In this document: positions 19,444-40,960 of the stretch, in pieces
Layout of the letters: each line of letters begins with the position of its first letter
Position numbering within the stretch: position 1 is the first letter of the stretch
Origin: Hamadaea tsunoensis DSM 44101
GTDB lineage: Bacteria > Actinomycetota > Actinomycetes > Mycobacteriales > Micromonosporaceae
Direction: 5' to 3'
Assembly (NCBI RefSeq): GCF_000428945.1
Contig: NZ_AUAX01000035.1
Span: 15,368 to 79,367, forward strand
DNA length: 64,000 nt
Program-made: the position numbers and the translations under genes
The notes under the pieces: generated by a model
The model's input: the letters and a program-made list of their open reading frames with translations, nothing else
Told to the model about the DNA's origin: nothing
The model's database searches: none

Positions 19444-20496
19444 TCAGAACGGCGTCACGCGTACGCCCCACGGGCCGGTGACGTGCTCGGGGGTGATCGT
19501 CAGGGTGACGACCTGCCCCGCCTTCTCCCGCAGTCCGGGGAAGGTCGTGCCGCCCACGTCCGGTCCGGCGGCGGTCAGCGTGATCCCGCAGCTCTGCTGG
19601 CTGTAGAGCCAGAACGAGCAGGTGTCCACCTCGACGCCGTCGACCGTCGCCCGCAGGATGCCGGGGGTGGCCGAGCCCATCGTCAGATCGAACGATCCGG
19701 TCCAGATGATCTGCCGGGTGATCGGCGCGGTGACGTCGTCGGCGCTGGTGAACAGATCGTCGTCCAGGTTGCGGAGGTCGTCGCCGTGATGGGTGCCCAC
19801 CGGGATCTCCAGCGAGGGCAGTACGCTCGGCCGTGGCGGCAGCGGGTACTCGTCGAAGGCCACCGACTCGCCCACCGCCACGCCGATCACGGCGTCGTCC
19901 GGTACGGCGATGGGCGAGCTGCCGGGTGTCGGTCCGTTCCGGAACGTCGCGGCCTTGTCGGCGGTGACGGTCAGCGTGGCCGGCGTGCCGAGCACCACCC
20001 CGTACTTCGACCATTCGTCGACCTTCCACCGCCCGGTGCTGCCGTCGCCGCCGTCGCTGCAGCTGAATCCGGCGAACCCCCGGCCGTTGAGCTTGACCTT
20101 CAGGAAGAGCTGGGTGCCCTCCGGCGCGTGGAACGAGCAGGAATGGAAGATCGTGATCTCGTTCGATGTCGAAGTCGGCGTCCACGTCAGCGTCAGCGGC
20201 CCCGCCGAGTACGCCTGCCGGCCCGACGCGATCACGCGCGCTCCGCTCGCGTACTCGGGGAAGCCGTTGATCGTCCTGGGGGACGGTGTGGCCGCCGGCG
20301 TGGGCGCGGACCGGTGGGCCGGCGTGCCGATGATCAGGCCGGTGACCAGGACGGCGACCGCGGCGACGGCGGCGACCGCGCTGGCGGCGAGGCGGCGCCG
20401 GCGCCGCACGATCCGCGCGCGTACCGAGATCATCCGCAGCCCGTCGAGCGACGGCGCGCCGGCGGAGCGCTGCTCCATGAGCTCCTTGAGGTCCAT
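19444..20496 (-). CDS. Membrane-anchored anti-sigma factor partner of the ECF sigma (N-in, single TM, extracytoplasmic domain)
   Basis: Its ATG overlaps the sigma-gene TGA (TGATG); ~45-aa cytoplasmic part, then TM LAASAVAAVAAVAVLVTGLIIG, then a Pro/Thr-rich linker and beta-rich domain. Confidence 0.6.
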   Translation of the reverse strand: MDLKELMEQRSAGAPSLDGLRMISVRARIVRRRRRLAASAVAAVAAVAVLVTGLIIGTPAHRSAPTPAATPSPRTINGFPEYASGARVIASGRQAYSAGPLTLTWTPTSTSNEITIFHSCSFHAPEGTQLFLKVKLNGRGFAGFSCSDGGDGSTGRWKVDEWSKYGVVLGTPATLTVTADKAATFRNGPTPGSSPIAVPDDAVIGVAVGESVAFDEYPLPPRPSVLPSLEIPVGTHHGDDLRNLDDDLFTSADDVTAPITRQIIWTGSFDLTMGSATPGILRATVDGVEVDTCSFWLYSQQSCGITLTAAGPDVGGTTFPGLREKAGQVVTLTITPEHVTGPWGVRVTPF

Positions 20497-28948: not shown

Positions 28949-29047
28949 GATTTGTCGCCGTGATGGGCAGGCAATCGGCGCGTAACGCCAATGGGGCATT
29001 CTGGACGTCATTCTTCTGCGGAACACTTCGCACATGGGGAGGCGTCC

Positions 29048-29833
29048 ATGCTGTTGCGCATCAGGGTCGCGCTGCCTGATCGACCGGGGTCGCTCGGTCA
29101 GGTCGCGCGTACCCTCGGCGTCGCCGGGGCCGACATCGTCCAGGTCGTCGTGCTCGAACGGGCCGTCGGCCGGGCCGTGGACGACTTCACCGTCGTGTGG
29201 CCGAGCGGGGCGAGCGTACGCCGCCTGATGTCCGGTCTCGGTGCGATGCCCGGGGTCCGCGTCGACGGGGTCTGGCAGGCGATCGGCGCTCCCGTGCACG
29301 GCGGCAACGACGCCGAGCTGCTGGCCCAGGTCGCCGTGCACCCGAACGACGGCCTCGCCACCCTGGTCGACGCCGTTCCCGGGCTGCTGGCCGCCGAGTG
29401 GGCCGCCGTCCTGGTCGTGCCGGCCGACTGGGCGCTGCGCAGCGCCGGCGGACGCCGGATCGAGGCGGCCGAGCCCGCCGTCGTCCACGCGAGCTGGCGG
29501 GCGCCGGAGTCCCCGAAACTGCCGGCCGTGACCCCGTTGCGGGCGCGGGCGCTCAGCGGCCCCGACGGCACCCGGTACGCGGTCGCGCCCTTCGGCCGGG
29601 CCGGACTGGTGCTCGTCACGGCCCGGGGCGGGGAGATCAACACGTTGCCGGCCGAGCCGGAGCCGTTCTTCGGCGTACCGGTCGACGACCTGCCGCACCC
29701 GCCGGCCGCCGCCTTCCACACCTCCGAGGTGGACCGCCTGGCCCAGCTCGTCCGCGCGGCCGCTCTGGTGCTGGGCGACCGCCTGGACCTGGTGAGCGCG
29801 CCGCCGGTCCGGACGCCGGCTCCGCTGAGCTGA
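29048..29833 (+). CDS. ACT-domain protein of unknown function
   Basis: N-terminal ACT fold MLLRIRVALPDRPGSLGQVARTLGVAGADIVQVVVLE; SD atggggagg; paralogous to the N-terminus of the next gene. Confidence 0.55.
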   Translation: MLLRIRVALPDRPGSLGQVARTLGVAGADIVQVVVLERAVGRAVDDFTVVWPSGASVRRLMSGLGAMPGVRVDGVWQAIGAPVHGGNDAELLAQVAVHPNDGLATLVDAVPGLLAAEWAAVLVVPADWALRSAGGRRIEAAEPAVVHASWRAPESPKLPAVTPLRARALSGPDGTRYAVAPFGRAGLVLVTARGGEINTLPAEPEPFFGVPVDDLPHPPAAAFHTSEVDRLAQLVRAAALVLGDRLDLVSAPPVRTPAPLS

Positions 29834-29959: not shown

Positions 29960-30982
29960 ATGTCGTTGTGGCGCGTACGGGCGACGGTGGACGACCGGCC
30001 CGGCTATCTGGCGGTGCTGGCGGCGAGCCTCGCACTGCGCTCGGTGAACATCCTCTCCGTCCAGGTGCACACCACCGAGGCGGGCGCGGTCGACGACTTC
30101 CTGGTCGACGCGCCGGCCGGGCTCAGCGAGGCCGACCTGATGGCCGCCGTCGAGAAGGGCCGGGGCCGCGACGCCTGGATCGGCCGCGCCGACGCGCACG
30201 GGCTGGTGGATCCGCCGACGCAGGCCCTCGGGCACGCGCTGCGGCTGGTGTCCAACCCGGAAGGGCTTGGCGACGTGCTCAAGGCCCTGCTCGACTGCGA
30301 GGTCTCCTGGCGGCCGGCCCGCGGCGCCGTGCACTTCCTGCCCGACGAGCTGGCGGTCACCGACCCCGCCGGCGGGATGCTGGTCCTCAACCGGCGCCAC
30401 CCCGCGTTCACCCCCGCCGAGTACGCCCGGGCGCAGGCCCTGGCCGAGATCGCGGCCCAGGCCACGGCGGCCCAGCTCGTGCAGGCCAGCCTGCTCCTGC
30501 CGGACGGATCGGAGCTCAGCGTACGCGTGGCGCATTCGTCCGATGTGGAGGAGATCGTCGCCATGCACGGCCGGTGCTCGGCGGAGAGCCTCTACCGGCG
30601 GTACCTGACCGGGACCCGTGGTCCGACGGCGGAGCAGGTCGCCCGGCTCGTCGAGCCCCGCCGCGGCTGCTCCCTCGTCGCCGGTACGCCCGACGGCCGC
30701 GTGGTCGCGTTCGCGAACCTGCTCGGCGAGGGCGACCTGGCCGAGGCGGCCCTGCTCGTGCAGGACGGCTGGCAGGGGCGCGGTCTCGGAACGGCCCTGC
30801 TGCGCCGGCTCGTGGCGCTCGCCCGCCCGGCCGACATCGTGGCGATCGAGCTGCACACCCATGCCGACAACGCGGCGATGCTGCGTACCGTGCGGCGGTT
30901 GGGGGAGCCGGTCGCGTACGACCGGGACGGTTCGATCGTCACCGCGACGCTCGCGCTGGCCGGGGCGCGGCAACCTGCCTGA
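29960..30982 (+). CDS. ACT-domain protein fused to a C-terminal GNAT acetyltransferase domain
   Basis: N-terminal ACT (MSLWRVRATVDDRPGYLAVLAASL...) and C-terminal GNAT motif A QDGWQGRGLGTALLRRLVALAR. Confidence 0.65.
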   Translation: MSLWRVRATVDDRPGYLAVLAASLALRSVNILSVQVHTTEAGAVDDFLVDAPAGLSEADLMAAVEKGRGRDAWIGRADAHGLVDPPTQALGHALRLVSNPEGLGDVLKALLDCEVSWRPARGAVHFLPDELAVTDPAGGMLVLNRRHPAFTPAEYARAQALAEIAAQATAAQLVQASLLLPDGSELSVRVAHSSDVEEIVAMHGRCSAESLYRRYLTGTRGPTAEQVARLVEPRRGCSLVAGTPDGRVVAFANLLGEGDLAEAALLVQDGWQGRGLGTALLRRLVALARPADIVAIELHTHADNAAMLRTVRRLGEPVAYDRDGSIVTATLALAGARQPA

Positions 30983-31000: not shown

Positions 31001-33001
31001 TTACCGGGCGGGCTCGTCCTCGGAGGACTTCGCCTGCGACGGCAGGGAGAGCTTGCCCTCGCCGAGGGCCCGCATGATCACCGCGGCCAGCCCGTCGAGG
31101 CTGGATCCGCCGGTGACGAGGACCTCCGGCACGATGTTGATGTTGCCTTCGGCGATCGCACCGGCCACCGCCACGAGGGCCGTCGGCATCTCGCCGATCG
31201 CGCTGGTCTGGGCCTCGAAGCCGGTCGCCCGGGCGACCCCCATGGCCTCGACCGCCTTCGCCTCGGCGAGACCGATCGCCTGGATCTTGTCCGCGTCGGC
31301 CTGACCGGTGAGCCGCGTGTACGCCGCGTCACCGCCGGCCTGCGCCTCGCGGGCCTTCGCCCGGTTGCCGTTGATCTCGACGGAGACCTGGGCGGCCGCG
31401 AGTTCCGCCTGCATGTCGGCGGTACCGCGGGCCTTCTCCATCTCGACGCGGGCGGTCTGGGCGAGCTGCTGCTCCTTGTACGTGGCGCGTTCCTGGTTGG
31501 CGATCTCGCGCCGGGTCAGCACCTCGACCAGCTCCGGCGGGAAGGTGACGTCCTGGATGTAGACGCCCTTCGTCTCGATCTCGTACCCGGCCAGGTAGCG
31601 GGTGACCACGCCGTGCGCGCTCTGCTGCACCTCCATGCGGGTCTCGATGAACTTGACCGCTTCGAGCTGCTGCAGGGTGTTGCGGAAGTGGTTGCCGACG
31701 GCGGACTGGAGCACCTCGTTCACGAGGTTCTTCATCGTGCCGACCATCGAGATCACCTTCGGCGCCCGCTGATCGGGGACGTGGATCTGCACCTGGAGGT
31801 CGATCGTGAAGACGAAGCCCTCCCGGCTCTTGCCCACGATCGGCTCCAGCCGGGCGTCCAGGTCGTGCGCCTGCGAACTGGCGTTGGCCCAGTTCAACGT
31901 CAGGATGAAGGTCGGGACCAACTCCGCTGAATAGATCCGGGGGTTGATCGCGTACTTGCCGGTGCGCAGGGGCTCCTGCCAGATGCCCCGGTGTCCCGGC
32001 CGGACGATGCTGCCGAATTTGAACTCCACGCCGGACGTGTCCAGCGTCGGCAGGCCCACGAAGGACTTGATCACCGCCACCTCGCCCTGGTTCACCACGA
32101 GCATCGCGACGAGCTCTACGCGTACCAGGAAAGGGTTGAGCAGGTAGGCCCCGTAGAGCAGGGGGTCGTGCTGCAGGCCGATGCGGCCGCCCTTGTCCAG
32201 GAAGGCCTGGAAGTCCTGGTAGTTGTTGTGCAGCTCGTTCTTGGAGCCGAGCAGGAGATCGATGATCTCGGCGTCCTGGGTCGCGGGCAGGGTCTCCAGC
32301 TGGGTGACGTCGTCGAAGCCGCCGAGGCGGCTGGCCAGGTCGCCGGAGTCGAGCGGCTCGCCCTCCAGGGCGGTCACGAGGCCGACCATGTCGACGTTGC
32401 CCTGCGGCGCGATGACGGTGACCTCGAGGTGCTCCGGGCGCAGCTTGAAGGCCGCGGGCGTGAGCTTGTTGTCGTGCGCGAGGGTGGCGAACTCGGGCGC
32501 CACGGGCAGGCCGAACACGCGGCGCGCGGTGAGCACGAGGAAGCCGACCGGGTGGATCGGCATCAGCGTGCCGGGCGGCAGCACGGGCCGCTGTACGCCC
32601 TTCTCGCCCGCGTTGCCGATGAAGCCCCGCAGGTCCGAGAAGTTCCCGAAGGACGGGTGGTAGAAGGCGCTCTTGGCGCCGATCGGCAGCGGGCGGCCCA
32701 CCTGGGAGATGACCACGCCGATCTCGCCGGCCTGGATCTGCACCCACGGGTACTTCGTGACCGAGTAGACCGGCCACAGCTTGAACCGCGCGCCGGGCAT
32801 CAGCAGGTCGGCCTGGTGGCCGGCCTCGCCGCGGAACGCGATCGGGTTGTCGTCGGGCAGCTTGCGCCCGAACTTCTTCGTCACCAGTCCGACCTGGGTC
32901 GGGCCGATCCGGTGCCAGGACTTGGCGACGAGAAGCAGGAAGATCAGGAGTACGCCTAGCGCCACGATGACGGCGACGCCCCCGAAAGCGATGTTCTCCA
33001 A
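31001..33001 (-). CDS. Flotillin-like SPFH/band-7 protein (YqiK family) with N-terminal TM and long coiled-coil C-terminus
   Basis: N-terminal TM (VAVIVALGVLLIFLLLVA); SPFH core; Ala/Glu/Gln-rich coiled coil. Confidence 0.75.
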   Translation of the reverse strand: MENIAFGGVAVIVALGVLLIFLLLVAKSWHRIGPTQVGLVTKKFGRKLPDDNPIAFRGEAGHQADLLMPGARFKLWPVYSVTKYPWVQIQAGEIGVVISQVGRPLPIGAKSAFYHPSFGNFSDLRGFIGNAGEKGVQRPVLPPGTLMPIHPVGFLVLTARRVFGLPVAPEFATLAHDNKLTPAAFKLRPEHLEVTVIAPQGNVDMVGLVTALEGEPLDSGDLASRLGGFDDVTQLETLPATQDAEIIDLLLGSKNELHNNYQDFQAFLDKGGRIGLQHDPLLYGAYLLNPFLVRVELVAMLVVNQGEVAVIKSFVGLPTLDTSGVEFKFGSIVRPGHRGIWQEPLRTGKYAINPRIYSAELVPTFILTLNWANASSQAHDLDARLEPIVGKSREGFVFTIDLQVQIHVPDQRAPKVISMVGTMKNLVNEVLQSAVGNHFRNTLQQLEAVKFIETRMEVQQSAHGVVTRYLAGYEIETKGVYIQDVTFPPELVEVLTRREIANQERATYKEQQLAQTARVEMEKARGTADMQAELAAAQVSVEINGNRAKAREAQAGGDAAYTRLTGQADADKIQAIGLAEAKAVEAMGVARATGFEAQTSAIGEMPTALVAVAGAIAEGNINIVPEVLVTGGSSLDGLAAVIMRALGEGKLSLPSQAKSSEDEPAR

Positions 33002-33122
33002 TGTGGCCTCCAGCCACGAGAAGGGTCGATCAAGACGCTAGACCCTGTCCGCAAGCGGATGTTCGCCGCCAGCACATCTGACCGCCATCGATGTGTCCGC
33101 CGGGTGCCGTACCAACAGCGCC

Positions 33123-34376
33123 ATGACGCAGGCGATCAGCCCACCGACCCGCGCCGAGCAGCGCGTACAGCGTGTCGCGCATTTCACCGACACCTATCTG
33201 CCGCGGCGCGACGGGGTGGTGACGTCGCTGCGGACGTTGTGCCGGGAACTGGACGCCGACGGGTGCGCCACGGTCACCGTCGCCCCGCGCCACCGGGAGC
33301 AGCCGCCGTCCACCGACCTGCTCACGCTCCGCTCGGTGCCGTGCGGCGTGGCCGATCTGCGGCTCGGCGGCTGGCCCACCGCCGCCGCCCTCGAACGTGT
33401 CGCCCACCGGCGACCCGACCTCATCCACGTCCACACGCCCGGGCCCATGGGCCTGCTCGGCACGATCGTCGCGCGCCGGCTCGGCGTACCGCTGGTGCAC
33501 AGCTATCACACCGACCTGTACGCGTACGCCGAGGCGTACCGGGTGCCGGCCAGGGCTCTGGAACTCGGCCTGCAGTACTACGCCCGGCATCTCGGCGCGC
33601 CGGGCCGGTGCGGCCAGGCGGGCGAGATCAGCCGCCGGCACCGGGCGCTGGACGGTCTGCACAAGCTGCTGCTGGGCCGGGCGGATGCCGTGATCGTCCC
33701 GACGCCGGCGGTGCTCGAACGGGCCCACCTGCCCGTCCCCGCCGAACGGATCTTCCTCGTCCCCGCCGGGGTCGCCGCGCGTCCGGTCACCCCCGCGGAG
33801 GTCGCCGCCTTCCGTACGCGCTGGGGCCTGCGCGAGGACGACGCCGTGGCCCTGTTCGTCGGCCGGGTCAACCGGGAGAAGGGCGTCGACCTGCTGATCT
33901 CCGCGTTCGCCCGGGTCGCCGCACGGGTGCCGGCGGCCCGGCTGCTCCTGATCGGAGCGGTCTACGAACCCCGCTGGGTACGCCGCCTGCTCGCCGCGGC
34001 CGGAGTGGAGTCCCGCGTGGTGATCACCGGTCAGCTGCCGCCGGAGGAGGTCGCGGCCGCGTACGCCTGCGCGCGCGTGTTCGCCTTCCCGTCCCTCACC
34101 GACACCCAGGGACTCGTGCTGCAGGAGGCGGCGCTGGCCGGCGTACCGTCGCTGCTCTGCGATCCACAGCTGCACCGGACCGGAGTGCTCGGCGAGACGG
34201 CTCTGCTGGCCCCGCCGCTCCCCGACGCGTACGCGGAGATGCTGACCGCGCTGCTCACGAGCCCGGGGACGGCCAAGGCGGCCGGGGCGCGGGCCCGGGA
34301 GCGCGCGATGCACCACACCCCCGCCCGGTACGCCGCCACGATGCGTGACGTCTACGCCTTCGCAGCGTCACGATGA
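33123..34376 (+). CDS. GT4-family glycosyltransferase
   Basis: N-terminal RVAHFTDTYLP motif; C-terminal GT4 E-x7-E region (PSLTDTQGLVLQEAALAGVPSL). Confidence 0.75.
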   Translation: MTQAISPPTRAEQRVQRVAHFTDTYLPRRDGVVTSLRTLCRELDADGCATVTVAPRHREQPPSTDLLTLRSVPCGVADLRLGGWPTAAALERVAHRRPDLIHVHTPGPMGLLGTIVARRLGVPLVHSYHTDLYAYAEAYRVPARALELGLQYYARHLGAPGRCGQAGEISRRHRALDGLHKLLLGRADAVIVPTPAVLERAHLPVPAERIFLVPAGVAARPVTPAEVAAFRTRWGLREDDAVALFVGRVNREKGVDLLISAFARVAARVPAARLLLIGAVYEPRWVRRLLAAAGVESRVVITGQLPPEEVAAAYACARVFAFPSLTDTQGLVLQEAALAGVPSLLCDPQLHRTGVLGETALLAPPLPDAYAEMLTALLTSPGTAKAAGARARERAMHHTPARYAATMRDVYAFAASR

Positions 34377-34390
34377 GTGTCTATCATGGC

Positions 34391-34487
34391 CGCCAAGATC
34401 CGGTTTGGATCAGGTTTTCGCACGTAATCTTGGCCCAAGATTCGGGTGATTTCCCTGATCCAAACGGGATCTTGGGGGCGGGACCCG
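34391..34487. repeat. Palindromic intergenic repeat, copy 2, between convergent gene ends
   Basis: GATCCGGTTTGGATCAGGTTTTCGCACGTAATCTTGGCCCAAGATTCGGGTGATTTCCCTGATCCAAACGGGATC. Confidence 0.6.
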
Positions 34488-34498
34488 CGGGGTAGCGG

Positions 34499-35401
34499 TC
34501 AGGCGGTGACGAGGGAGAGGTGGGTGGGGGCGACCTCGATCGCGACGCGCTGGCCGAAGGCCAGGGTCAGCCGGTCGTCCTCGATGCCGTCCGCGAAGCA
34601 GACCAGCTGCTCGCCCTCGCTCGTCAGTTCCAGCCGCCGGCCGCTCTCGACCAGCCCGGCGGTCAGCGTGACGCCGGTCGCGGGGGAGGGCCAGGCCTCG
34701 CGGACGAACCAGGCGAGCTCGGCCTGCTCGGGCGCGGGCAGCGCGGGCGAACTGGCCCGCTCGCGGGCGATGGACGCGCACCAGCCGGTCGCGCCCGTAC
34801 CCGTCCCGGCGATCACCCCGGACGACGACTGCCGCTCCCGGCGTCCGTCCGGTGTGGACAGGGCGTACCGGGCGGACTGGTGGCTGGTGTGGCCGAAGAA
34901 GATCTCGTTGAGCCCGGTGATCCGCTGGCCGTCGTCGAGGGTCGCCATCGCCATCGTCCGCCGCTGCACCGCCGCCCGCCCCGCCTGCACCGCCGGCAGC
35001 AGCCCCGCGACCTGCCCGGCCCGCAACGGCACGAGTACGCCGGCGTTGCGCCCCGGCTCCGGATCTACCCCGAGGACCGGCTGGCCGGACAGGTACTTGG
35101 CGACGTTGGCGACCAGCCCGTCGGGGCCGACGGCGACCACGATGTCCTCGGGCCCGAACAGGAACCGGGACAGGTCCGCCCGGCTGACCGAACCCCGCCG
35201 CCACGAGGCCGGAATGGCGGCGCTGACCGAGATCAGCGCCGCCTCCAGCGCGTCGTGCCGCACCTGCACCTCGTCGAGGCTGCGCTTGCGCTGCTTGAGG
35301 AAGTAGCCGGCGGCGGCGCGCGTACCGTGGCGGTCGAGGAGCTCCTCCAGCTCGCTGTGGCGCGACACGATCACCACCCGCGGCGCGAGCGAGCTGCTCA
35401 T
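34499..35401 (-). CDS. ATP-NAD kinase-family protein with a variant GGDG motif (GPDG)
   Basis: VVAVGPDGLVANVAKYL in place of GGDGT; NEIFF (NE/D short motif); conserved glycine-rich C-terminal region; ATGA overlap with the upstream SPFH gene. Confidence 0.55.
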   Translation of the reverse strand: MSSSLAPRVVIVSRHSELEELLDRHGTRAAAGYFLKQRKRSLDEVQVRHDALEAALISVSAAIPASWRRGSVSRADLSRFLFGPEDIVVAVGPDGLVANVAKYLSGQPVLGVDPEPGRNAGVLVPLRAGQVAGLLPAVQAGRAAVQRRTMAMATLDDGQRITGLNEIFFGHTSHQSARYALSTPDGRRERQSSSGVIAGTGTGATGWCASIARERASSPALPAPEQAELAWFVREAWPSPATGVTLTAGLVESGRRLELTSEGEQLVCFADGIEDDRLTLAFGQRVAIEVAPTHLSLVTA

Positions 35402-36465
35402 GTGTTCTTCGTACGCCGTTGCGCGGGCACCTCGCCACCGCCCGGGGCCAGCCGCTGCAGGAGATCGGTGACGACGTCCGGGGTGATCGTGAGGGCCTTG
35501 ATGTCGGGCAGCTTCCCGGCGAACTCGCGCACGGTCACGGACTGCAGGACGGCATCCGGCAGGTCCCGGTACGCCGCGAGCCGCGCCGCCTCCTTCTCGG
35601 CTTCGGCGAGGCCGAGCGCGCGGACGGCGGCGGCCCGGGCGTCGGCGAGCACCTTCTCGCGTTCGGCCTGCCCGGCCGTGGCCAGCTTCTCCCGTTCGGA
35701 CTGGCCCTGCGCCTCGGCGAGCTGCGCGGCCGCGTCCAGTTCGGCCTGCCGCCGGGCGTTGGCGCCGTGCTGCTCGACCAGCTGCTGCTCTCGCCGGGCG
35801 AGCTCGATCTTGTTCTGCAGCTCGTTCTCGGCGATCGCCCGCTCCTGCTCGACCGCCTGGGCGCGGCGGGCGTACGTGGCCCGGTCGGCGTCCGCCTGGA
35901 CCGTCTCCCGGGTCGGCGTCTGCAGGGCCCGCTCCAGCTCCGGCTCGGGCCGGATGGCGACCACGCGCGCGCTGACGACGCGTACGCCGAGATCGGAGAG
36001 CCGGGCGTCCTCGGCGAGCGCGGCGGAGACGGCCTCGCGCACCGGCGAGATCCCCGCGGTGAGGGCCTCGGCGAGCGGGAGGCGGGCCAGCAGGTCGAGT
36101 GCGGGCTGCTGGGCGAGCTCCGCGAGCAGCGTGGCCACCTGGTCGAGCGGGCGGGCGGCCGCGGCGCCGGTGGCCGGGTTGATGGAGAAGTCGAGGCGCG
36201 AAGCGGCGGCCGCGGGGTCGGCGACGCGATAAGTGACCGTCGCCTGGACGGTGATGTCGCTGAAGTCGGCCGACCGCGCGTGGAACAGCAGCGGCAGCTC
36301 GCGGTCGTCGACGGGGACCTCGCTGAGCACGGCGGTCAGCGGCCGGTACCAGAAGGACAGGCCGACGCCCTCGCGCTTGACCCGGCCCTTGGCGTGGTGC
36401 CTGATCCAGGTGGTGGGGGTGCTGCGCAGGTGCCGAAGGAAGAACCGACGGGAGATGTCGGCCAT
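35398..36465 (-). CDS. SPFH/band-7 domain protein with Ala/Glu-rich coiled-coil C-terminus
   Basis: SPFH core (TVQATVTYRVADP...); coiled coil; middle gene of a three-gene operon. Confidence 0.7.
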   Translation of the reverse strand: MADISRRFFLRHLRSTPTTWIRHHAKGRVKREGVGLSFWYRPLTAVLSEVPVDDRELPLLFHARSADFSDITVQATVTYRVADPAAAASRLDFSINPATGAAAARPLDQVATLLAELAQQPALDLLARLPLAEALTAGISPVREAVSAALAEDARLSDLGVRVVSARVVAIRPEPELERALQTPTRETVQADADRATYARRAQAVEQERAIAENELQNKIELARREQQLVEQHGANARRQAELDAAAQLAEAQGQSEREKLATAGQAEREKVLADARAAAVRALGLAEAEKEAARLAAYRDLPDAVLQSVTVREFAGKLPDIKALTITPDVVTDLLQRLAPGGGEVPAQRRTKNT

Positions 36466-36480
36466 GGGGGGAGTCCTTTC

Positions 36481-37170
36481 CTACGCTCTATGGGGGGTCT
36501 TCGCGTCCCCGGGAGTCTTCGCGGTACGGCGGGACAGCATTCCGGCGAGCCGGGAGAACACGATGATGAGCAGCCAGGAGAACTCGGCGTAGTCCGGCTT
36601 CGCGAAGGCGATCGGGATGGACAGCGCGAAGACGAACGCGGCCACCCCGGCGCCGACGATCATGTTGTGGCTGACGTGCGCCGGCGTACCCTTGCGCCAC
36701 AGCTTCTGCCGGTTGGCGGTGATCACCATGAGGATGAGGGCCAGCGACCAGAGGATCATCGCGCTCGCGTAGAAGACCGGGCCGAGCGGGCCGCCGTTGT
36801 CGACGCTGAGCAGCCGCGTTCCGAACGGCACGACCACGATCGCGAACAGGCTCACCATGTTGAGGAAGACGAGCCGGCCGCTGAGCACGTTGATGCGCTG
36901 GAAGAACCGGTGGTGCTCCCACCAGAAGAACGAGATCACGGCGAAGCTGATGGCGAAGGACCGGTACTCGTCTCCTCCCGCCAGGAACTCCACCCACACC
37001 TCATGGGTGCTCTTGCCGAGGCCCTCGGGCACCGGCAGCTCCAGCGCCAGCAGCGTCAGCGCGATCGCGATCACGGCGTCGGAGAAGTAGATGGTCCGTT
37101 CGAGGCTGTGGCCCGGCTCGTCGAGGTCGGCGGTCGTTTCGGCGGTCGTCGTCACGGCGTCATTCTGCAA
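36481..37170 (-). CDS. DUF1211 / TMEM175-like membrane protein (putative K+ channel homologue)
   Basis: Signature RTIYFSDAVIAIALTLLALEL in TM1 (TMEM175 family FSD..AIA.TLL); six predicted TM segments. Confidence 0.65.
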   Translation of the reverse strand: MQNDAVTTTAETTADLDEPGHSLERTIYFSDAVIAIALTLLALELPVPEGLGKSTHEVWVEFLAGGDEYRSFAISFAVISFFWWEHHRFFQRINVLSGRLVFLNMVSLFAIVVVPFGTRLLSVDNGGPLGPVFYASAMILWSLALILMVITANRQKLWRKGTPAHVSHNMIVGAGVAAFVFALSIPIAFAKPDYAEFSWLLIIVFSRLAGMLSRRTAKTPGDAKTPHRA

Positions 37171-37262
37171 TACGCCCGACAGTTGTGGGACTCGCCGGTC
37201 GCCCGCCGTCTACGCTCGCCCCCGGTTCCGCCCGGCCGGGCGGTCAGGCTCAGGGAGACTCC

Positions 37263-37895
37263 ATGGCGGTCGTCAGGCGTACGGGCAACGTCGTACCACA
37301 TCAGACAGCAGCGGCAGCACCCGCGACACCGGCGGCGTCGGACACCGCGGCGGCGCCGACCAAGCCCGCCCACCTGTGGGCCGTGGCGATCGGCGTCGGC
37401 TTCGTCGCGGCCGGCCTGCTCGGGGGGTACCTGATCTGGAACGGCATGCACGCCAACACCTTCCGCGCGACCAGCGAAGGATCCATCTTCGCCGCCCTGG
37501 TCGTCTTCACCGCCGCGGTCGAGCGGGTCATGGAGCCCTTCACCCGCTGGCTGCCCGGCAAGACCGCGCAGCAGAAACTGGACTGGGCGATCGCCGCGAT
37601 GGAGAACGGCGTCGGCAGCGTCGTCAGCGCCGCGGACGCCAAGGCCGGGGCCGAGCAGGCCAAGGCGGACAAGGGCGTCATCGCCTGGGGCATCGCGACC
37701 GCGCTGGCCACGCTGTTCTCGGCGGGCAGCGGGTTCTACATGCTCCACATGATCGCGTCGAATCCGGACTGGAACGTGATCCCGCAGTGGCTGGACGCGC
37801 TGATCACCGGCCTGATCGTCGGCAGTGGAACCAAGCCCGTGCACGACCTGATCAGCCGCGTACAGCAGGCGAAGGACAAGGTCGCGGGCCTGTAG
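37263..37895 (+). CDS. Hypothetical membrane protein (3-4 TM segments)
   Basis: ORF with SD GGGAGAC 6 nt before the ATG; hydrophobic segments; no recognisable family. Confidence 0.45.
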   Translation: MAVVRRTGNVVPHQTAAAAPATPAASDTAAAPTKPAHLWAVAIGVGFVAAGLLGGYLIWNGMHANTFRATSEGSIFAALVVFTAAVERVMEPFTRWLPGKTAQQKLDWAIAAMENGVGSVVSAADAKAGAEQAKADKGVIAWGIATALATLFSAGSGFYMLHMIASNPDWNVIPQWLDALITGLIVGSGTKPVHDLISRVQQAKDKVAGL

Positions 37896-38004
37896 CTCCT
37901 TCTCTCCTCTCCCCCTCTTCCGGCGATCTTGCGCGAATGTTCGGGCCTGTCGGGCATTCCGGACGAATTTTGAGACATTCGTGCAAGATCGTCGGGAGCG
38001 GAGA

Positions 38005-39405
38005 TCAGTTCTTGCGGGACCCCAGGAGCCAGCCCTTGCGGACGGGGCCGGATTCCGGGCCGCCGAGTTGCAGCCGTTCGGGGGTGATCACCGGCAGTTC
38101 TCCGGTCGGCTCGGACAGGCCGGGGACCGGCGGCCGGACGATCGGTGCTGCCCGGCGCTGGGCGGGGATGGCCGGCGTCGGGACCGGTGCCGTCGCCGAC
38201 GCGTGGAACGGACAACGGCCCAGGTCGCGGGCTGTCTCGTCGAGGTAGAAGTTGGGGCGCTGGTCCGCTTCGGGGTAGTACCGGTGGAAGACCGGCGAGA
38301 TCGAGCCCGACATCGGCGGCACGAGCCAGGTCCAGTCCCCGGGGACGGTACGCCCCGACCGTTCCTCGCGTTCGATGTGCGTCAGGAAGTGCCGGGACTC
38401 GGTGTGGTGGTCGGCGATCTTCACGCCGGCCTGCTCGAACGACCAGAGGACCGCGCGGTTGAGCTCGACCAGCGCCCGGTCCCGCCAGAGGGTCGTCTCG
38501 CGGCCGGTGTCGAGGCCGAGCCGGGCGGCGATGACCGGCAGCTGGTCGTAGCGGTCGGCGTCGGCGAGGTTGCGCGCGCCGATCTCGGTACCCATGTACC
38601 AGCCCGAGAACGGGGCGAGCGGATAGTGCACGCCGCCGATGGTCAGCCGCATGTTGGAGATCGCCGGTACGCCGTGCCACCGCAGCCCCAGCTCGGCGAA
38701 CCACGGCAGGTCGGGGTGGCTGAGCGGCACTTCGAGGACGGCGTCCTCGGGCAGGTCGACGAGGTGGGGTTCCTGCCCGGGTTCCTGCAGGACGAGCGGC
38801 AGGATGTCGAACGAGCTGTGCTTGCCCCGCCAGCCGAGCTCCGACACCGCCTCGGTGAACTCCACGTACGCCTGGTCGCCGAGCCCGTCGCGGTAGCCGG
38901 CGTACCGGATGAGCTGCTCGTTCCACAGCACGGTACGCGGCCGCCCCGGCACGGCCTGCGGGAAGATCGAGATGACCGGCCGCAGGCGGCCCCGGTTCAC
39001 GCCCCGGCCGGAAGCCATCAGCAGGTGCTCGACGAGGTGCTCGGCGGTGGCCTCGACGGTGGTGACCCCGCGCAGGTCGCGGACGACCAGACTGTTCCAG
39101 TAGAGCCGGCCGATGCACCGGCTCGCGTTGCGCCACGCCATCCGGGCACCGTGCGCCAGTTCCGCGCGGGTGTGCGCGTACGTGCCGAGGGCGGCGATCT
39201 GCTCGCGTACCTGCTCGATCCGGTGTGCCGCCTGGGCGTCCCCGCCGAGCTTGGGGTTCTCGGCGTACACCCGTTGCAGGAAGTCCGCTGCCTCGTCGGG
39301 ATCGGTGGGCTCGTTGTGGAACTGGCTGAGGGGCGCATCACGATAGCCGGGGGGCGGGTTCATTCCGTCAGTTATTGGTGTGGCTTGATGCGGCGTGTCG
39401 GACAT
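38005..39405 (-). CDS. nos: Bacterial nitric oxide synthase oxygenase domain with a ~70-aa Pro-rich C-terminal extension
   Basis: GARMAWRNASRCIGRLYWNSL (heme Cys loop); RYAGY; WYMGTEIGARNLAD; end-to-end alignment to bsNOS; start codon uncertain (39405 or 39363). Confidence 0.85.
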   Translation of the reverse strand: MSDTPHQATPITDGMNPPPGYRDAPLSQFHNEPTDPDEAADFLQRVYAENPKLGGDAQAAHRIEQVREQIAALGTYAHTRAELAHGARMAWRNASRCIGRLYWNSLVVRDLRGVTTVEATAEHLVEHLLMASGRGVNRGRLRPVISIFPQAVPGRPRTVLWNEQLIRYAGYRDGLGDQAYVEFTEAVSELGWRGKHSSFDILPLVLQEPGQEPHLVDLPEDAVLEVPLSHPDLPWFAELGLRWHGVPAISNMRLTIGGVHYPLAPFSGWYMGTEIGARNLADADRYDQLPVIAARLGLDTGRETTLWRDRALVELNRAVLWSFEQAGVKIADHHTESRHFLTHIEREERSGRTVPGDWTWLVPPMSGSISPVFHRYYPEADQRPNFYLDETARDLGRCPFHASATAPVPTPAIPAQRRAAPIVRPPVPGLSEPTGELPVITPERLQLGGPESGPVRKGWLLGSRKN

Positions 39406-39485
39406 AATGTGCGACACGCGTGGGCCACACATGACCGAATGTCGATGCCGCTCGGACGGGGGAGCCCTTCCCGGTGACCGTCCGT

Positions 39486-40115
39486 CTAGGCGACGGCCTC
39501 CCGCACCGCCGGGCGCAGCGCGTACACGACACCGGTCGCGAGCAGGAACTGGGCCAGGATGTAGGTGGTCATCACCCAGATGTCCGACGGCCACAGCTGC
39601 GGCCGGTCGGCCAGTCCCATCGCGAGGATCGCGTCGGACACGACGAACAGCAGCCCGCCGAGGCCCGTACGCAGGCCGTAGCCGGCCGACGTCGCGCCGG
39701 TGGCGATCAGCAGCAGAGAGTAGGCCGCCACCGGGACGCGCAGACCCGCGTCCAGCCCCGGCCACAGCCACACGATCAGCAGCAGCCACACGACCAGGTA
39801 GGCCGCCGGGATCCACGGCCGCCTGCGCAGGCCCGCGAAGGCGCCGTTGCGCACGAAGTACGTCACGTAGCAGGCGTGCCCGACCGCGAAGCACCCCATG
39901 CCGACGATGAACCAGCCGTCGAAGCCCAGCGTGATGTCGCCCGCCGCGCCGAACAGCAGCGCCGCGACGATCGGCTTCGGCCCCCGCCGCGTCGCCACCC
40001 ACAGCGCCAGCGTGGGCACCAGCACCCACTTCGTCAGCTGCTCCAGCCAGTGCGGCCCCGTTTCGAGCGAGACCAGATGAGCCAGACCCACCATGGCGTA
40101 CGCGACGAGGATCAT
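39486..40115 (-). CDS. YhhN-family membrane protein (TMEM86/lysoplasmalogenase-like)
   Basis: Eight TM segments with YhhN motifs (FGAAGDITL...FVVSDAILA); ATGA overlap with the upstream hydroxylase gene. Confidence 0.65.
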   Translation of the reverse strand: MILVAYAMVGLAHLVSLETGPHWLEQLTKWVLVPTLALWVATRRGPKPIVAALLFGAAGDITLGFDGWFIVGMGCFAVGHACYVTYFVRNGAFAGLRRRPWIPAAYLVVWLLLIVWLWPGLDAGLRVPVAAYSLLLIATGATSAGYGLRTGLGGLLFVVSDAILAMGLADRPQLWPSDIWVMTTYILAQFLLATGVVYALRPAVREAVA

Positions 40116-40960
40116 GCGTCTCCCTCCGAGCGGGACGGCTGCCAGCCCGGGCCGCCGAAGACACGGCCGAGGCGCTCACGCCAGGTCGTGGCGGCCTTCA
40201 GGTCACGGCCGATGGACGCGTACTCGTGCAGGGCCACGCGCAGCGGGTTGAAGGTGTCGATGTTCTTGGTCAGGCCGTAGACGGGCCGCTCGGTCTCCGG
40301 GGCGAACGAGCCGAAGAGCCGGTCCCAGACGATCAGGATGCCGCCGAAGTTGCGGTCCAGGTACCCGCCCTGCGAAGCATGGTGTACGCGGTGGTGCGAC
40401 GGCGTGTTCAGCATGAACTCGAACGGCCGGGGCAGCCTGTCGATGCGCTCGGTGTGGATCCAGAACTGGTACACCAGGTTCACCGAACTGCAGAACGCCA
40501 GCACCGCCGGGTGTACGCCGAGCGCGATCATCGGCAGGTAGAACAGCCAGCTCGTGAAGCCGGTCCACGGCTGCCGGAGGGCGGTCGACAGGTTGAACCG
40601 CCGGCTGGAGTGGTGCACGACGTGCGACGCCCACAGCAGCCGGATGTTGTGGTGGCCCCGGTGCGACCAGTAGTAGAAGAAGTCCTGGGCCAGCAGGCAC
40701 AGCAGGATCCACTGCCACTCGATCGGTACGCGTACCGGCGTGACCGTGTAGATCGCCGAGTACACGAGGGCCGGGATGATGCCCCAGAGCGTGTCGAAGA
40801 AGAGGCTGCCCAGGCCCATGGACAGGCTCGTGGCGGTGTCCTTGGCGCCGTAGCCGACCTCGTCCTCGTCCGGATGGAGCCGGTAGGAGATCGCCTCCAG
40901 CAGGGTGAGCAGGATGAACGCCGGGACGGACCACAGCACGACGTTGGGCAGCGCGGGCAT
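40112..40960 (-). CDS. Fatty acid hydroxylase superfamily membrane di-iron oxygenase (sterol desaturase / alkylglycerol monooxygenase-like)
   Basis: Histidine boxes HRGHH, HVVHH and HHRVHH; four TM segments. Confidence 0.7.
   Translation of the reverse strand: MPALPNVVLWSVPAFILLTLLEAISYRLHPDEDEVGYGAKDTATSLSMGLGSLFFDTLWGIIPALVYSAIYTVTPVRVPIEWQWILLCLLAQDFFYYWSHRGHHNIRLLWASHVVHHSSRRFNLSTALRQPWTGFTSWLFYLPMIALGVHPAVLAFCSSVNLVYQFWIHTERIDRLPRPFEFMLNTPSHHRVHHASQGGYLDRNFGGILIVWDRLFGSFAPETERPVYGLTKNIDTFNPLRVALHEYASIGRDLKAATTWRERLGRVFGGPGWQPSRSEGDA

Follow-up and report, generated by a model that had tools for sequence, protein, structure and literature searches.

The closest described counterpart of the locus analysed here is nrtX-nrtY, a pair of genes of unknown function predicted to belong to the NrtR regulon (Rodionov et al. 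2008, NAR 36:2047, PMC2330246). The pair was reported in the groups 'Actinobacteria-2b' and 'Gammaproteo-1a', its unit being written nrtR<#>nrtX-nrtY, and the same study showed that ADP-ribose and 2'-phospho-ADP-ribose (2'-phospho-ADPR) release NrtR from DNA in vitro (PMC2330246). In a literature search, the names nrtX and nrtY turned up in this sense only in PMC2330246, and no paper was found that combines SPFH either with NrtR or with NAD kinase plus operon, or that deals with COG3199.

We analysed a 64,000-nucleotide stretch of Hamadaea tsunoensis DSM 44101 (the window), in which three tightly packed ORFs lie on the minus strand in the order TMEM175/DUF1211, SPFH, NAD-kinase-fold. These are a TMEM175/DUF1211-like channel gene (36481..37170; 229 aa, with Pfam PF06736 and PDB matches to TMEM175), an nrtX-like gene encoding an SPFH/Band-7 protein of 355 aa (35398..36465) and an nrtY-like gene encoding an NAD-kinase-fold protein of 300 aa (34499..35401). 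ORFs, junctions, Pfam matches and AF2 models agree with the gene content, coordinates, tight packing and SPFH coiled coil described in an earlier, sequence-only reading of this DNA. The nrtX-like and nrtY-like genes share an ATGA stop/start overlap on the minus strand (35398..35401, read in the sequence as acATGAgc), which suggests that they may be translationally coupled. The stop codon of the TMEM175-like gene is separated from the start of the SPFH gene by a minus-strand spacer of 15 nt (gaaaggactcccccc, 36466..36480; with its flanking codons TAG-gaaaggactcccccc-ATG), which has an RBS-like GAAAGGA inside it. This spacer is too short for a promoter or an NrtR operator to fit between the two genes; in most relatives, the same spot is a 60-120 bp promoter region holding two NrtR boxes. 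The neighbours of the locus in the window are housekeeping genes, including a sugar ABC transporter, a GH1 glycosidase and a biotin-synthase-like gene. An Rfam scan of the whole window at gathering thresholds found no structured RNA or riboswitch, and on the minus strand a scan of 33900-37900 for promoters and terminators yielded no useful result.

The sequence-only reading had treated the three genes as one cassette and had suggested a neighbourhood comparison, which we ran on 80 related genome loci. The SPFH gene lies directly upstream of the NADK-like gene, on the same strand, in all 80, an adjacency far beyond chance; the DUF1211 gene was present in one of these loci only (L001, of the Hamadaea-like clade). 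Thus, the cassette holds for the pair and not for the channel gene. Adjacent pairs were also found in Clostridium, Collimonas, Anaerocolumna and three metagenomic lineages, and further ones on Rhizobium etli p42f, on a Streptomyces plasmid and in Proteus mirabilis, so that every locus sampled from Actinomycetota, Clostridia and Alpha-, Beta- and Gammaproteobacteria has the pair in the same order. A 4-nt overlap joins nrtX and nrtY in 27 of the 55 loci in which both ORFs were called, and most of the others have a gap of <10 nt. One protein, P0165, is an apparent SPFH-NADK-like fusion that looks genuine, although it is a single case; a second, P0177, was set aside as Rosetta-stone evidence, its gene call being apparently frameshifted. 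A species-representative set yielded 581 related stretches, corresponding to hundreds of genomes with nrtX-nrtY. The actinobacterial loci occupy stable, lineage-typical contexts. Plasmid copies were found in 63 records, mostly large Rhizobium chromids. We take the conserved functional unit to be an operon of two genes, in which a gene for a soluble SPFH/Band-7 protein is followed by one for a divergent NADK-fold protein.

The strongest signal in the genomic context, overlooked by the sequence-only reading, is the NrtR repressor together with its operators. An nrtR gene, encoding a NUDIX domain and a winged helix (NrtR_WHD), adjoins the pair upstream in 66 of the 80 loci, either divergent or co-oriented. 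Predicted operators conform to a 21-bp palindrome, TTATCGTC-N5-GACGATAA, which contains the published GT-N7-AC NrtR core. Allowing ≤3 mismatches, 67 of the 80 loci carry one or more in the 200 bp ahead of the SPFH start and 63 carry two, with just 3 off-target matches in 1.22 Mb. Paired operators keep a set spacing of either 33-34 or 44-45 bp. On inspection by eye, the operator lying upstream appears to overlap a -35 hexamer (TTGACG) and the one downstream a -10 element of the type TAnnnT, a layout consistent with repression. In most actinobacterial loci examined, tandem predicted NrtR operators responsive to ADP-ribose immediately precede the SPFH gene and seem to lie over its promoter.

We therefore identify the SPFH/NADK-like pair with nrtX-nrtY on the basis of matching layouts in named organisms, the main text of the 2008 study giving no protein families. 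The two-gene order is the same, orthologues stand in the arrangement nrtR<#>X-Y in Proteus mirabilis, Frankiaceae and Kineosporia (L043, L066), and the operator of the relatives is the published 21-bp palindrome. In the Proteus mirabilis locus, a gene encoding NUDIX and NrtR_WHD is divergent from a Band_7 gene (338 aa) that has an NADK-like gene (315 aa) behind it; as tblastn query, the window protein gave 34% identity over 97% coverage (2e-38). On the Streptomyces plasmid, the operators are present without an adjacent nrtR. Both layouts, nrtR<>SPFH-NADKL in Proteus and operators lacking an adjacent nrtR in Streptomyces, agree with Table 1 of PMC2330246. The actinobacterial operator consensus had no match at the proteobacterial or clostridial loci, and the Proteus locus has palindromes of its own. 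The sequence-only reading knew of no description of the three-gene cassette. The pair had in fact been flagged in 2008. The channel-SPFH-kinase combination is not a new system, and the window pair is a further case of the known, uncharacterised nrtX-nrtY. What is added to the 2008 description is the SPFH and NADK-like identities of the two proteins, the missing membrane anchor of the first and the G[Q/P]DG signature of the second.

Unlike published nrtX-nrtY loci, the window copy sits behind a TMEM175-like gene and has neither nrtR nor an operator within 64 kb. No NrtR homologue was found in the window, and no match to TTATCGTC-N5-GACGATAA with ≤3 mismatches occurs anywhere in it. Two matches with 4 mismatches, one at 19494 and the other within the coding sequence of the SPFH gene, were rejected as poor and misplaced candidates for a hidden operator. 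The operator was also not found in the relatives from the same clade. Judged from sequence, the locus in the window and in its closest relatives has lost nrtR together with the two operators, a clade-specific regulatory rewiring rather than the mark of a three-component machine. An nrtR gene acting through a diverged operator may nevertheless lie beyond the 64 kb. As the pair lies 15 nt behind the TMEM175-like gene, it is probably read through from the promoter of that gene.

The reading that we favour, with a probability of roughly 0.6, is that nrtX-nrtY is a two-gene unit induced by ADP-ribose through NrtR, in which NrtX scaffolds the NrtY kinase, and that its control has been rewired in the clade of the window. 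The window pair is most likely a two-protein NAD/ADP-ribose-linked module. The earlier suggestion of NAD(P)-linked signalling points in the right direction. NAD consumption would generate free ADP-ribose, which would release NrtR and induce nrtX-nrtY. NrtY would then phosphorylate an adenine dinucleotide, candidates being NAD(H), NaAD, or ADP-ribose, the last giving 2'-phospho-ADP-ribose. By analogy with other SPFH proteins, NrtX may form a ring or cage oligomer that scaffolds or gates NrtY. Such a unit would tie SPFH scaffolds to nucleotide-cofactor homeostasis instead of membranes. The analysis sharpens a problem standing since 2008 into a membrane-less SPFH protein and an NADK2-like fold with a diagnostic G[Q/P]DG loop, and a description this concrete makes the substrate of NrtY, the assembly of NrtX and de-repression by ADP-ribose directly testable. 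Lineages without NrtR control, such as that of the window, offer natural variants for asking what the regulation serves.

The properties of NrtX are those of an SPFH protein that lacks a membrane anchor. Pfam Band_7 (PF01145) matched the nrtX-like protein at 3.6e-14 (53.6 bits against a cut-off of 23.6). Secondary structure in an AF2 monomer model of moderate quality (pLDDT 75, pTM 0.39) divides the protein into an SPFH domain (~20-173), a single helix of 115 residues (186-300) and a short conserved C-terminal segment, and the best structural matches in Foldseek were HflK/C, flotillin, prohibitin, erlin and the major vault protein (MVP). This succession of SPFH domain, extended helix and brief conserved C-terminal stretch relates NrtX to the SPFH/Band-7 assemblies (HflK/C-FtsH, QmcA-YbbJ/NfeD, flotillin, prohibitin, and the shoulder and cap-helix of MVP), and, like HflK/C, QmcA and YqiK, it shares an operon with its presumed client. 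The N-terminal TM helix or hydrophobic hairpin of the membrane-anchored SPFH proteins (stomatin, HflK/C, flotillin/YqiK) is missing from it by Kyte-Doolittle analysis. The maximum 19-residue mean hydropathy is 1.12, against 3.17 (at residue 8) for the flotillin-like neighbour, and the median maximum across 71 nrtX orthologues is 1.22. NrtX is thus predicted to be a soluble SPFH protein without a membrane anchor, and the 'membrane operon' of the sequence-only reading does not apply to it. MVP is the only similarly soluble protein among the SPFH relatives compared. The partner also differs from those of known SPFH assemblies, being a nucleotide kinase-fold protein rather than an NfeD protein or a protease.

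A more ambitious form of the favoured reading starts from four features: NrtX has no membrane anchor, the two genes are obligatorily paired, NrtR controls them, and the fold of NrtY resembles that of NADK2. NrtX would form a soluble, vault-like cage that encloses or gates the NrtY kinase, and ADP-ribose would trigger conversion of NAD/ADP-ribose to NADP/2'-phospho-ADPR during NAD consumption. The assembly would be a bacterial counterpart of the eukaryotic vault, with its SPFH-like shell and NAD-consuming PARP4, and mitochondrial NADK2 would have NrtY as its sister group in bacteria. We regard this picture as speculative and rather improbable.

ADP-ribose sensing could also serve conflict with phages. 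NrtR would sense the ADP-ribose that phage ADP-ribosyltransferases or NAD-depleting defences set free, and NrtX-NrtY would act as the effector or repair arm, for instance by shielding or restoring the NAD(P) pool or by converting ADP-ribose. Nudix-HTH sensors of the NrtR type control predicted ADPr-centred conflict systems (PMC9503650), and an ADP-ribosylglycohydrolase gene lies divergently beside nrtR-nrtX-nrtY in Collimonas. Two of the 6 sampled non-actinobacterial loci adjoin a type I R-M system and integrase, or nSTAND3/AAA genes. The plasmid copies would likewise fit such a role, although most of these matches lie on large Rhizobium chromids. Against an anti-phage role, the three proteins and two neighbours gave no match to the 5027 defence models of PADLOC-DB 2.0 (E≤0.1), and the pair had no match in 50,697 phage records either; we rejected a known defence system on these grounds. 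In addition, no toxic effector is obvious, the contexts in Actinomycetota are stable and lineage-typical, and the neighbours in the window are housekeeping genes. On balance, we consider a conflict role unlikely.

The third protein, NrtY, does have an NADK fold with a non-canonical GGDG motif, as the sequence-only reading had proposed; the fold comprises two domains, and mitochondrial NADK2 is the closest match. Its motifs read G92-P-D94-G, L164-N-E166 and S192-S-S-G...G-T-G-T-G-A-T-G-W207. LNE (164-166) and SSSGVIAGTGTGATGW (192-207) align with the nucleotide-binding NE/ND motif and Gly-rich motif III (xxG...T.TGST.Y) as they occur in P. aeruginosa NADK and in human NADK2. The GPDG is not a mutation of this one gene, as had been supposed, but a family signature: among 239 NrtY-family sequences in which the motif was found, 226 have GQDG or GPDG and none has GGDG. 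The second Gly is always substituted (Q > P > R...), the Q or P being a bulky residue. The Asp is retained, in the window protein as D94, and is absent from two family members only (GPNG, GDPG). In NADK2 the Asp of this motif is catalytic, a D161N mutant keeping only trace activity (PMC9245612). NrtY forms a separate family of 237 clusters at 50% identity (E≤1e-30). In a Pfam search at E≤0.01, the nrtY-like protein had no NAD-kinase match (PF01513/PF20143), and on the NadK equivalog model NCBIfam NF002306 it scored 20.6 bits against a cut-off of 316. As both sets of thresholds were missed, the substrate of NrtY may be other than NAD. Homologues of the protein are named 'NAD kinase' in some database records. 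Compared with NAD kinases (EC 2.7.1.23; PF01513/PF20143), and NADK2 especially, NrtY is set apart by the invariable replacement of the second GGDG Gly, the missed curated models, the obligatory SPFH gene partner and the predicted regulation by NrtR.

The same features could mean that NrtY is a non-catalytic sensor with an NADK fold, in which loss of the second Gly abolishes binding of the phosphate donor, and NAD or ADP-ribose is bound to control SPFH assembly. The lack of canonical GGDG throughout the family, the scores far below threshold on curated NAD-kinase models and the few members without Asp would fit such a pseudo-enzyme. However, the catalytic Asp is retained in all but 2 of the tallied motifs, and NE/ND and SSSG...TG.G.TGW persist in inspected members at ~35-40% identity, which would be unusual for a pseudo-enzyme. 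Moreover, NADK2, a proven kinase, has the same SSG...TGTGS..W form of motif III as NrtY. A catalytically dead NrtY seems unlikely.

The family assignment of the first protein, that of the DUF1211 gene, is sound. Pfam TMEM175 (PF06736) matched the 229-aa protein at 6.3e-23 (81.5 bits against a cut-off of 25), which carries FSDAVIAIALTLL, the TM1 signature FSD-x-x-x-AI-x-x-T-L-L. Among TMEM175 channels of solved structure, it matches human 6w8n (1.3e-12), bacterial 5vre (1.6e-09) and 6hd8. It thus shares Pfam family, TM1 signature and structure matches with the TMEM175/DUF1211 channels (CmTMEM175 5vre, MtTMEM175 6hd8, human 6w8n), and here its gene is a neighbour of the pair, not a member of the module. 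A three-gene membrane module would have the SPFH protein scaffold or gate the TMEM175-like K+/H+ channel, with the NADK-like protein as a regulatory or NAD(P)-sensing subunit, in ion or pH homeostasis. SPFH proteins elsewhere do regulate membrane partners, as stomatin does with ion channels and HflK/C with FtsH, and both the tight packing (15-nt gap and ATGA overlap) and the retention of the triple in the window, L001, L091 and L092-94 would suit such a module. These are, however, the only places in which DUF1211 lies beside the pair, all in one genus-level, Hamadaea-like clade. We searched the 80 loci by tblastn at E≤1e-5, again up to E 0.5, and for the motif FSD-x-x-x-A in six frames. DUF1211 was absent within 8 kb of the pair from 79 of the 80 other genomes, L001 being the sole exception, and from every sampled non-actinobacterial locus, so that we rejected it as a third conserved component. 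Within the clade, collinearity extends over the entire ~13 kb, and conservation of the triple there therefore says nothing specific about the three genes. The NrtX family has no TM or hydrophobic segment, and the ancestral upstream partner of the pair is NrtR, not a channel. As a general cassette the membrane module is largely refuted, and we give it little credence. The TMEM175-like gene is a lineage-specific upstream neighbour, probably co-transcribed with the pair, with which it may have a functional link within the Hamadaea clade.

That the nrtY-like gene is an ordinary housekeeping NAD kinase (NadK/PpnK) lying beside the others by chance, for which the NADK fold and the naming of some homologues might speak, is ruled out by synteny and family data, since it is SPFH-linked in every locus examined, falls far short of the NadK equivalog cut-off and belongs to a separate family with a signature of its own. 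The housekeeping NadK is a separate gene in such bacteria.

A second SPFH gene lies 1.5 kb away on the minus strand (31001..33001), encoding a flotillin/YqiK-like membrane protein of 666 aa with an N-terminal TM helix. The sequence-only reading was right that this protein is real (Pfam Band_7, 1.4e-18). Besides the window, it accompanies the pair only in L001 and L092-93, and it is a bystander, syntenic only within the Hamadaea-like clade.

Three minus-strand genes of the window encode a TMEM175/DUF1211 protein of 229 aa (36481-37170; Pfam TMEM175/DUF1211, 6.3e-23), an SPFH protein of 355 aa (35398-36465; Pfam Band_7/SPFH, 3.6e-14) and an NADK-like protein of 300 aa (34499-35401). The open reading frames lie exactly where the sequence-only reading had placed them, with the 15-nt spacer between the TMEM175-like stop and the SPFH start (TAG-gaaaggactcccccc-ATG) and the ATGA overlap at the SPFH/NADK-like junction that it had described. 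The TMEM175-like protein contains FSDAVIAIALTLL and matches solved TMEM175 channels, and the separate flotillin-like gene nearby (31001-33001) is also real, with an N-terminal TM helix. While these observations held, the interpretation was supported in part: a novel three-component membrane system was not.

We scanned one genome per species, which returned 581 related stretches, and examined the best 80 of these with 8-kb flanks, including loci from Micromonosporaceae, Glycomyces, Arthrobacter, Paenarthrobacter, Kribbella, Nocardioides, Microbacteriaceae, Acidimicrobiia and others. Using tblastn with the window's proteins, we found that the NADK-like gene is directly preceded by an SPFH gene in 80/80 of these best loci. 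Among the same 80, the DUF1211, flotillin-like, GT4 and other window neighbours were seen only in Hamadaea (L001), and neither permissive tblastn nor a six-frame motif search detected a DUF1211 gene within 8 kb in the other 79. The closest SPFH homologues revealed the triple in a MAG (L091, 94-97% identity) and three metagenome contigs (L092-94, 86%) as well, where the whole block is collinear: fatty-acid hydroxylase, YhhN, NOS, membrane protein, TMEM175, SPFH, NADK-like, GT4, flotillin and GNAT. As DUF1211 adjacency is limited to this Hamadaea-like clade, with the entire block collinear, the proposed three-gene cassette amounts to clade-level synteny, with the pair as the conserved unit. In the next relative, Allorhizocola (SPFH 82% identical), an ABC transporter stands in place of the TMEM175-like gene. 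The pair is obligatory and usually translationally coupled, with an identical 4-nt overlap in 27 of the 55 loci in which both ORFs were called and mostly gaps of <10 nt in the remainder. Two proteins from the representative homologue search join Band_7 and NADK-like regions in one chain: P0165 (574 aa) looks like a true fusion that has lost the first NADK-like strand, and P0177 (654 aa) contains a frameshift-like stretch and is probably a gene-call artefact.

Pfam assigns no domain to the window's NADK-like protein, and its NCBIfam NAD-kinase match is sub-threshold (20.6 bits versus a cut-off of 316). Using phmmer against PDB sequences, the sole match was human mitochondrial NADK2 (7.6e-8); with the family profile, NADK2 scored 2.5e-12 and bacterial NADKs were matched too, at ~1e-4, and the aligned region takes in the G-x-D-G strand, N-E motif and Gly-rich motif III. 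AlphaFold modelled the protein with confidence (pLDDT 90.3, pTM 0.88). The NAD-kinase fold proposed for the third protein was upheld, with the catalytic Asp and dinucleotide-binding motifs kept. Its loop reads VAVG-P-D-G-LVAN, previously taken for a mutated GGDG. Three sets of sequences were tallied for this motif: 59 actinobacterial orthologues, 110 homologues from outside the actinobacteria, and those representatives of 50%-identity clusters that yielded the motif, 130 out of 150. GQDG was commonest and GPDG next; R, V, H, I, A or D stood in place of the Q or P in a few sequences, and GGDG was found in none. The Asp, which is the catalytic residue of NADKs (NADK2 D161N has trace activity only; PMC9245612), was lost in just two tallied sequences. 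Since GQDG and GPDG prevail and GGDG occurs nowhere in the tally, GPDG is an ordinary variant of the family signature, not a lesion. The family comprises 237 clusters at E<=1e-30 and 766 at E<=1e-10.

The model of the SPFH protein (pLDDT 75) shows disordered residues 1-19, an SPFH domain at ~20-173, a single continuous 115-residue helix at 186-300 and short C-terminal helices. While membrane-anchored SPFH members have a hydrophobic segment, this protein has none: its maximum 19-residue hydropathy is 1.12 (median of 71 orthologues, 1.22; clostridial and proteobacterial members, 1.1-1.5), against 3.17 for the flotillin-like neighbour. Just ahead of the start codon, the intergenic sequences inspected carry an RBS-like run of purines, so the shortness of the N-terminus does not reflect a mis-call. 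The protein is a soluble, coiled-coil-bearing SPFH protein, and 'membrane operon' is therefore not supported as a description of the conserved pair. The nearest structures by Foldseek are HflK/C, flotillin, prohibitin, erlin, stomatin and major vault protein, and the structural neighbours include human vault cages with PARP4, ADP-ribose and ADP (9bw6, 9mxj, 9mxv); the parallel, a soluble SPFH-like shell associated with NAD/ADPR chemistry, may be drawn as an analogy only.

Most of the 80 actinobacterial loci have NrtR and tandem operators directly upstream of the SPFH gene. Clustering of all neighbouring ORFs yielded one further conserved family, of ~230 aa and divergent from the SPFH gene, which is an NrtR regulator because it combines NUDIX and NrtR winged-helix domains. 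This nrtR adjoins the pair in 66/80 loci (51 by the ORF caller and 15 more by tblastn). The intergenic regions share the tandem motif TTATCGTC-N5-GACGATAA, a palindrome of 21 bp whose core is GT-N7-AC, as described for NrtR by Rodionov et al. (PMC2330246). Allowing up to 3 mismatches, 67/80 loci have one or more copies in the 200 bp preceding the SPFH start and 63/80 have two, spaced by 33-34 bp in 53 loci and 44-45 bp in 10, with just 3 off-site matches in 1.22 Mb. By eye, the boxes overlap promoter elements in a repressor layout: the upstream one a -35 hexamer, TTGACG, and the downstream one a -10 of the TAnnnT type.

In its Table 1, PMC2330246 gives 'nrtR2<#>nrtX-nrtY' in Kineococcus and Frankia and '#nrtR2; #nrtX-nrtY' in Streptomyces (group Actinobacteria-2b), 'nrtR<#>nrtX-nrtY' in Proteus mirabilis and '#nrtX-nrtY' in Hahella, with the pathway of nrtX-nrtY units entered as '?'. 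In P. mirabilis, we found a NUDIX+NrtR_WHD gene divergent from a Band_7 gene (338 aa) and then an NADK-like gene (315 aa), with GT-N7-AC palindromes between nrtR and the Band_7 gene; a Streptomyces plasmid carries the pair with two operators and without an adjacent nrtR, and the divergent layout recurs in a Frankiaceae MAG (L043) and Kineosporia (L066). On the basis of matching gene layout, nrtX is the SPFH gene and nrtY the NADK-like gene with high but not complete certainty, and the unit is very probably the nrtX-nrtY pair. A literature search found no other paper treating it. The P. mirabilis sequence (NZ_OL790811.1) is a PLSDB 'plasmid' record of 4.08 Mb, thus chromosome-sized, with tetR and tet(J) directly downstream of nrtY. 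On the linear plasmid psa3239 of Streptomyces yangpuensis, the pair with its operators is immediately preceded by a gene with a von Willebrand factor A domain (L096, 1174-2832).

Outside the Actinomycetota, searching with a profile of distant members found homologues in Clostridium, Anaerocolumna, Anaerotaenia and Collimonas, and in 6/6 non-actinobacterial neighbourhoods sampled the gene directly ahead of the NADK-like gene encodes a Band_7 protein of 337-339 aa. An ADP-ribosylglycohydrolase gene is divergent from nrtR-nrtX-nrtY in Collimonas (L083, 1459-2370), and a nicotinate phosphoribosyltransferase gene lies two genes away in a metagenomic lineage (L086, 1-1132); these neighbours are further ties of the unit to ADP-ribose/NAD metabolism. 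In Rhizobium etli p42f the arrangement is nrtR<>SPFH, and the next gene bears the annotation 'sugar kinase'. Type I restriction-modification and integrase genes, or nSTAND3/AAA and metallophosphatase genes, flank the pair at two loci (L085, 5808-8939; L088, 2491-5968), whose surroundings look defence-island-like, a sample too small to judge. The proteins matched no PADLOC models, and no copy of the pair was found in the phage collection.

The window holds a new, regulator-less member of this already known but uncharacterised gene pair. The 64 kb contain no NrtR homologue and no operator at <=3 mismatches, and L001 and L091-94 have no operator; nrtR and operators are also gone in Allorhizocola, Luedemannella, several Microbacteriaceae-like lineages and one Demequinaceae MAG. 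In the Hamadaea-like clade the TMEM175-like gene occupies the place of the promoter region, the window's 15-nt spacer has room for an RBS only, and the pair is probably transcribed from the TMEM175 promoter.

NrtR is released from DNA by ADP-ribose and likewise by 2'-phospho-ADPR, according to PMC2330246. NAD consumption would raise ADPR, which would take NrtR off the promoter and permit nrtXY expression; NrtY may phosphorylate NAD(H), a related adenine dinucleotide or ADPR, and NrtX may oligomerise and scaffold or gate NrtY. The window's clade has lost this NrtR control. We propose the specific biochemistry tentatively, and assign the explanation as a whole, identification and biochemistry together, a probability of roughly 0.6. 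The window's arrangement is ordinary clade synteny, and the underlying pair, widespread and unexplained since 2008, is now defined well enough for testing.

Further out, the pair is surrounded by ordinary genes of the chromosome, including a sugar ABC transporter, GH1 glycosidase, ACT/GNAT proteins, NOS, a biotin-synthase-like protein and a P450. The bacterial nitric-oxide-synthase oxygenase domain gene (38005-40179, minus; PF02898, 4.9e-144) was mechanically over-extended to 724 aa; relatives' calls are 426-470 aa and the real gene spans ~38005-39300. It adjoins a YhhN gene (39486-40115), which a fatty-acid hydroxylase gene (40112-40960) overlaps by 4 nt, and L001 and L092 share this block in collinear order. 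A predicted membrane protein of 236 aa (37185-37895, plus; likely start near 37260), encoded divergently from the TMEM175-like gene, has no match in Pfam, NCBIfam or PADLOC, and its conservation is confined to the Hamadaea-like clade. Between these two genes, L001 (4581-6170), L092 (3682-5220) and L093 (424-1962) carry an M4 (thermolysin-like) peptidase gene, which is missing from the window (~37171-37260) and L091, indicating an indel within the clade. The GT4 glycosyltransferase gene (33093-34376, plus), convergent with the NADK-like gene, matches PF20706 'GT4 in conflict systems' weakly (34.4 bits) and generic GT4 families much more strongly. Also on the plus strand lie genes for a protein with an N-terminal ACT domain and a GNAT acetyltransferase domain (29960-30982) and, beside it, another N-terminal ACT-domain protein (28991-29833).
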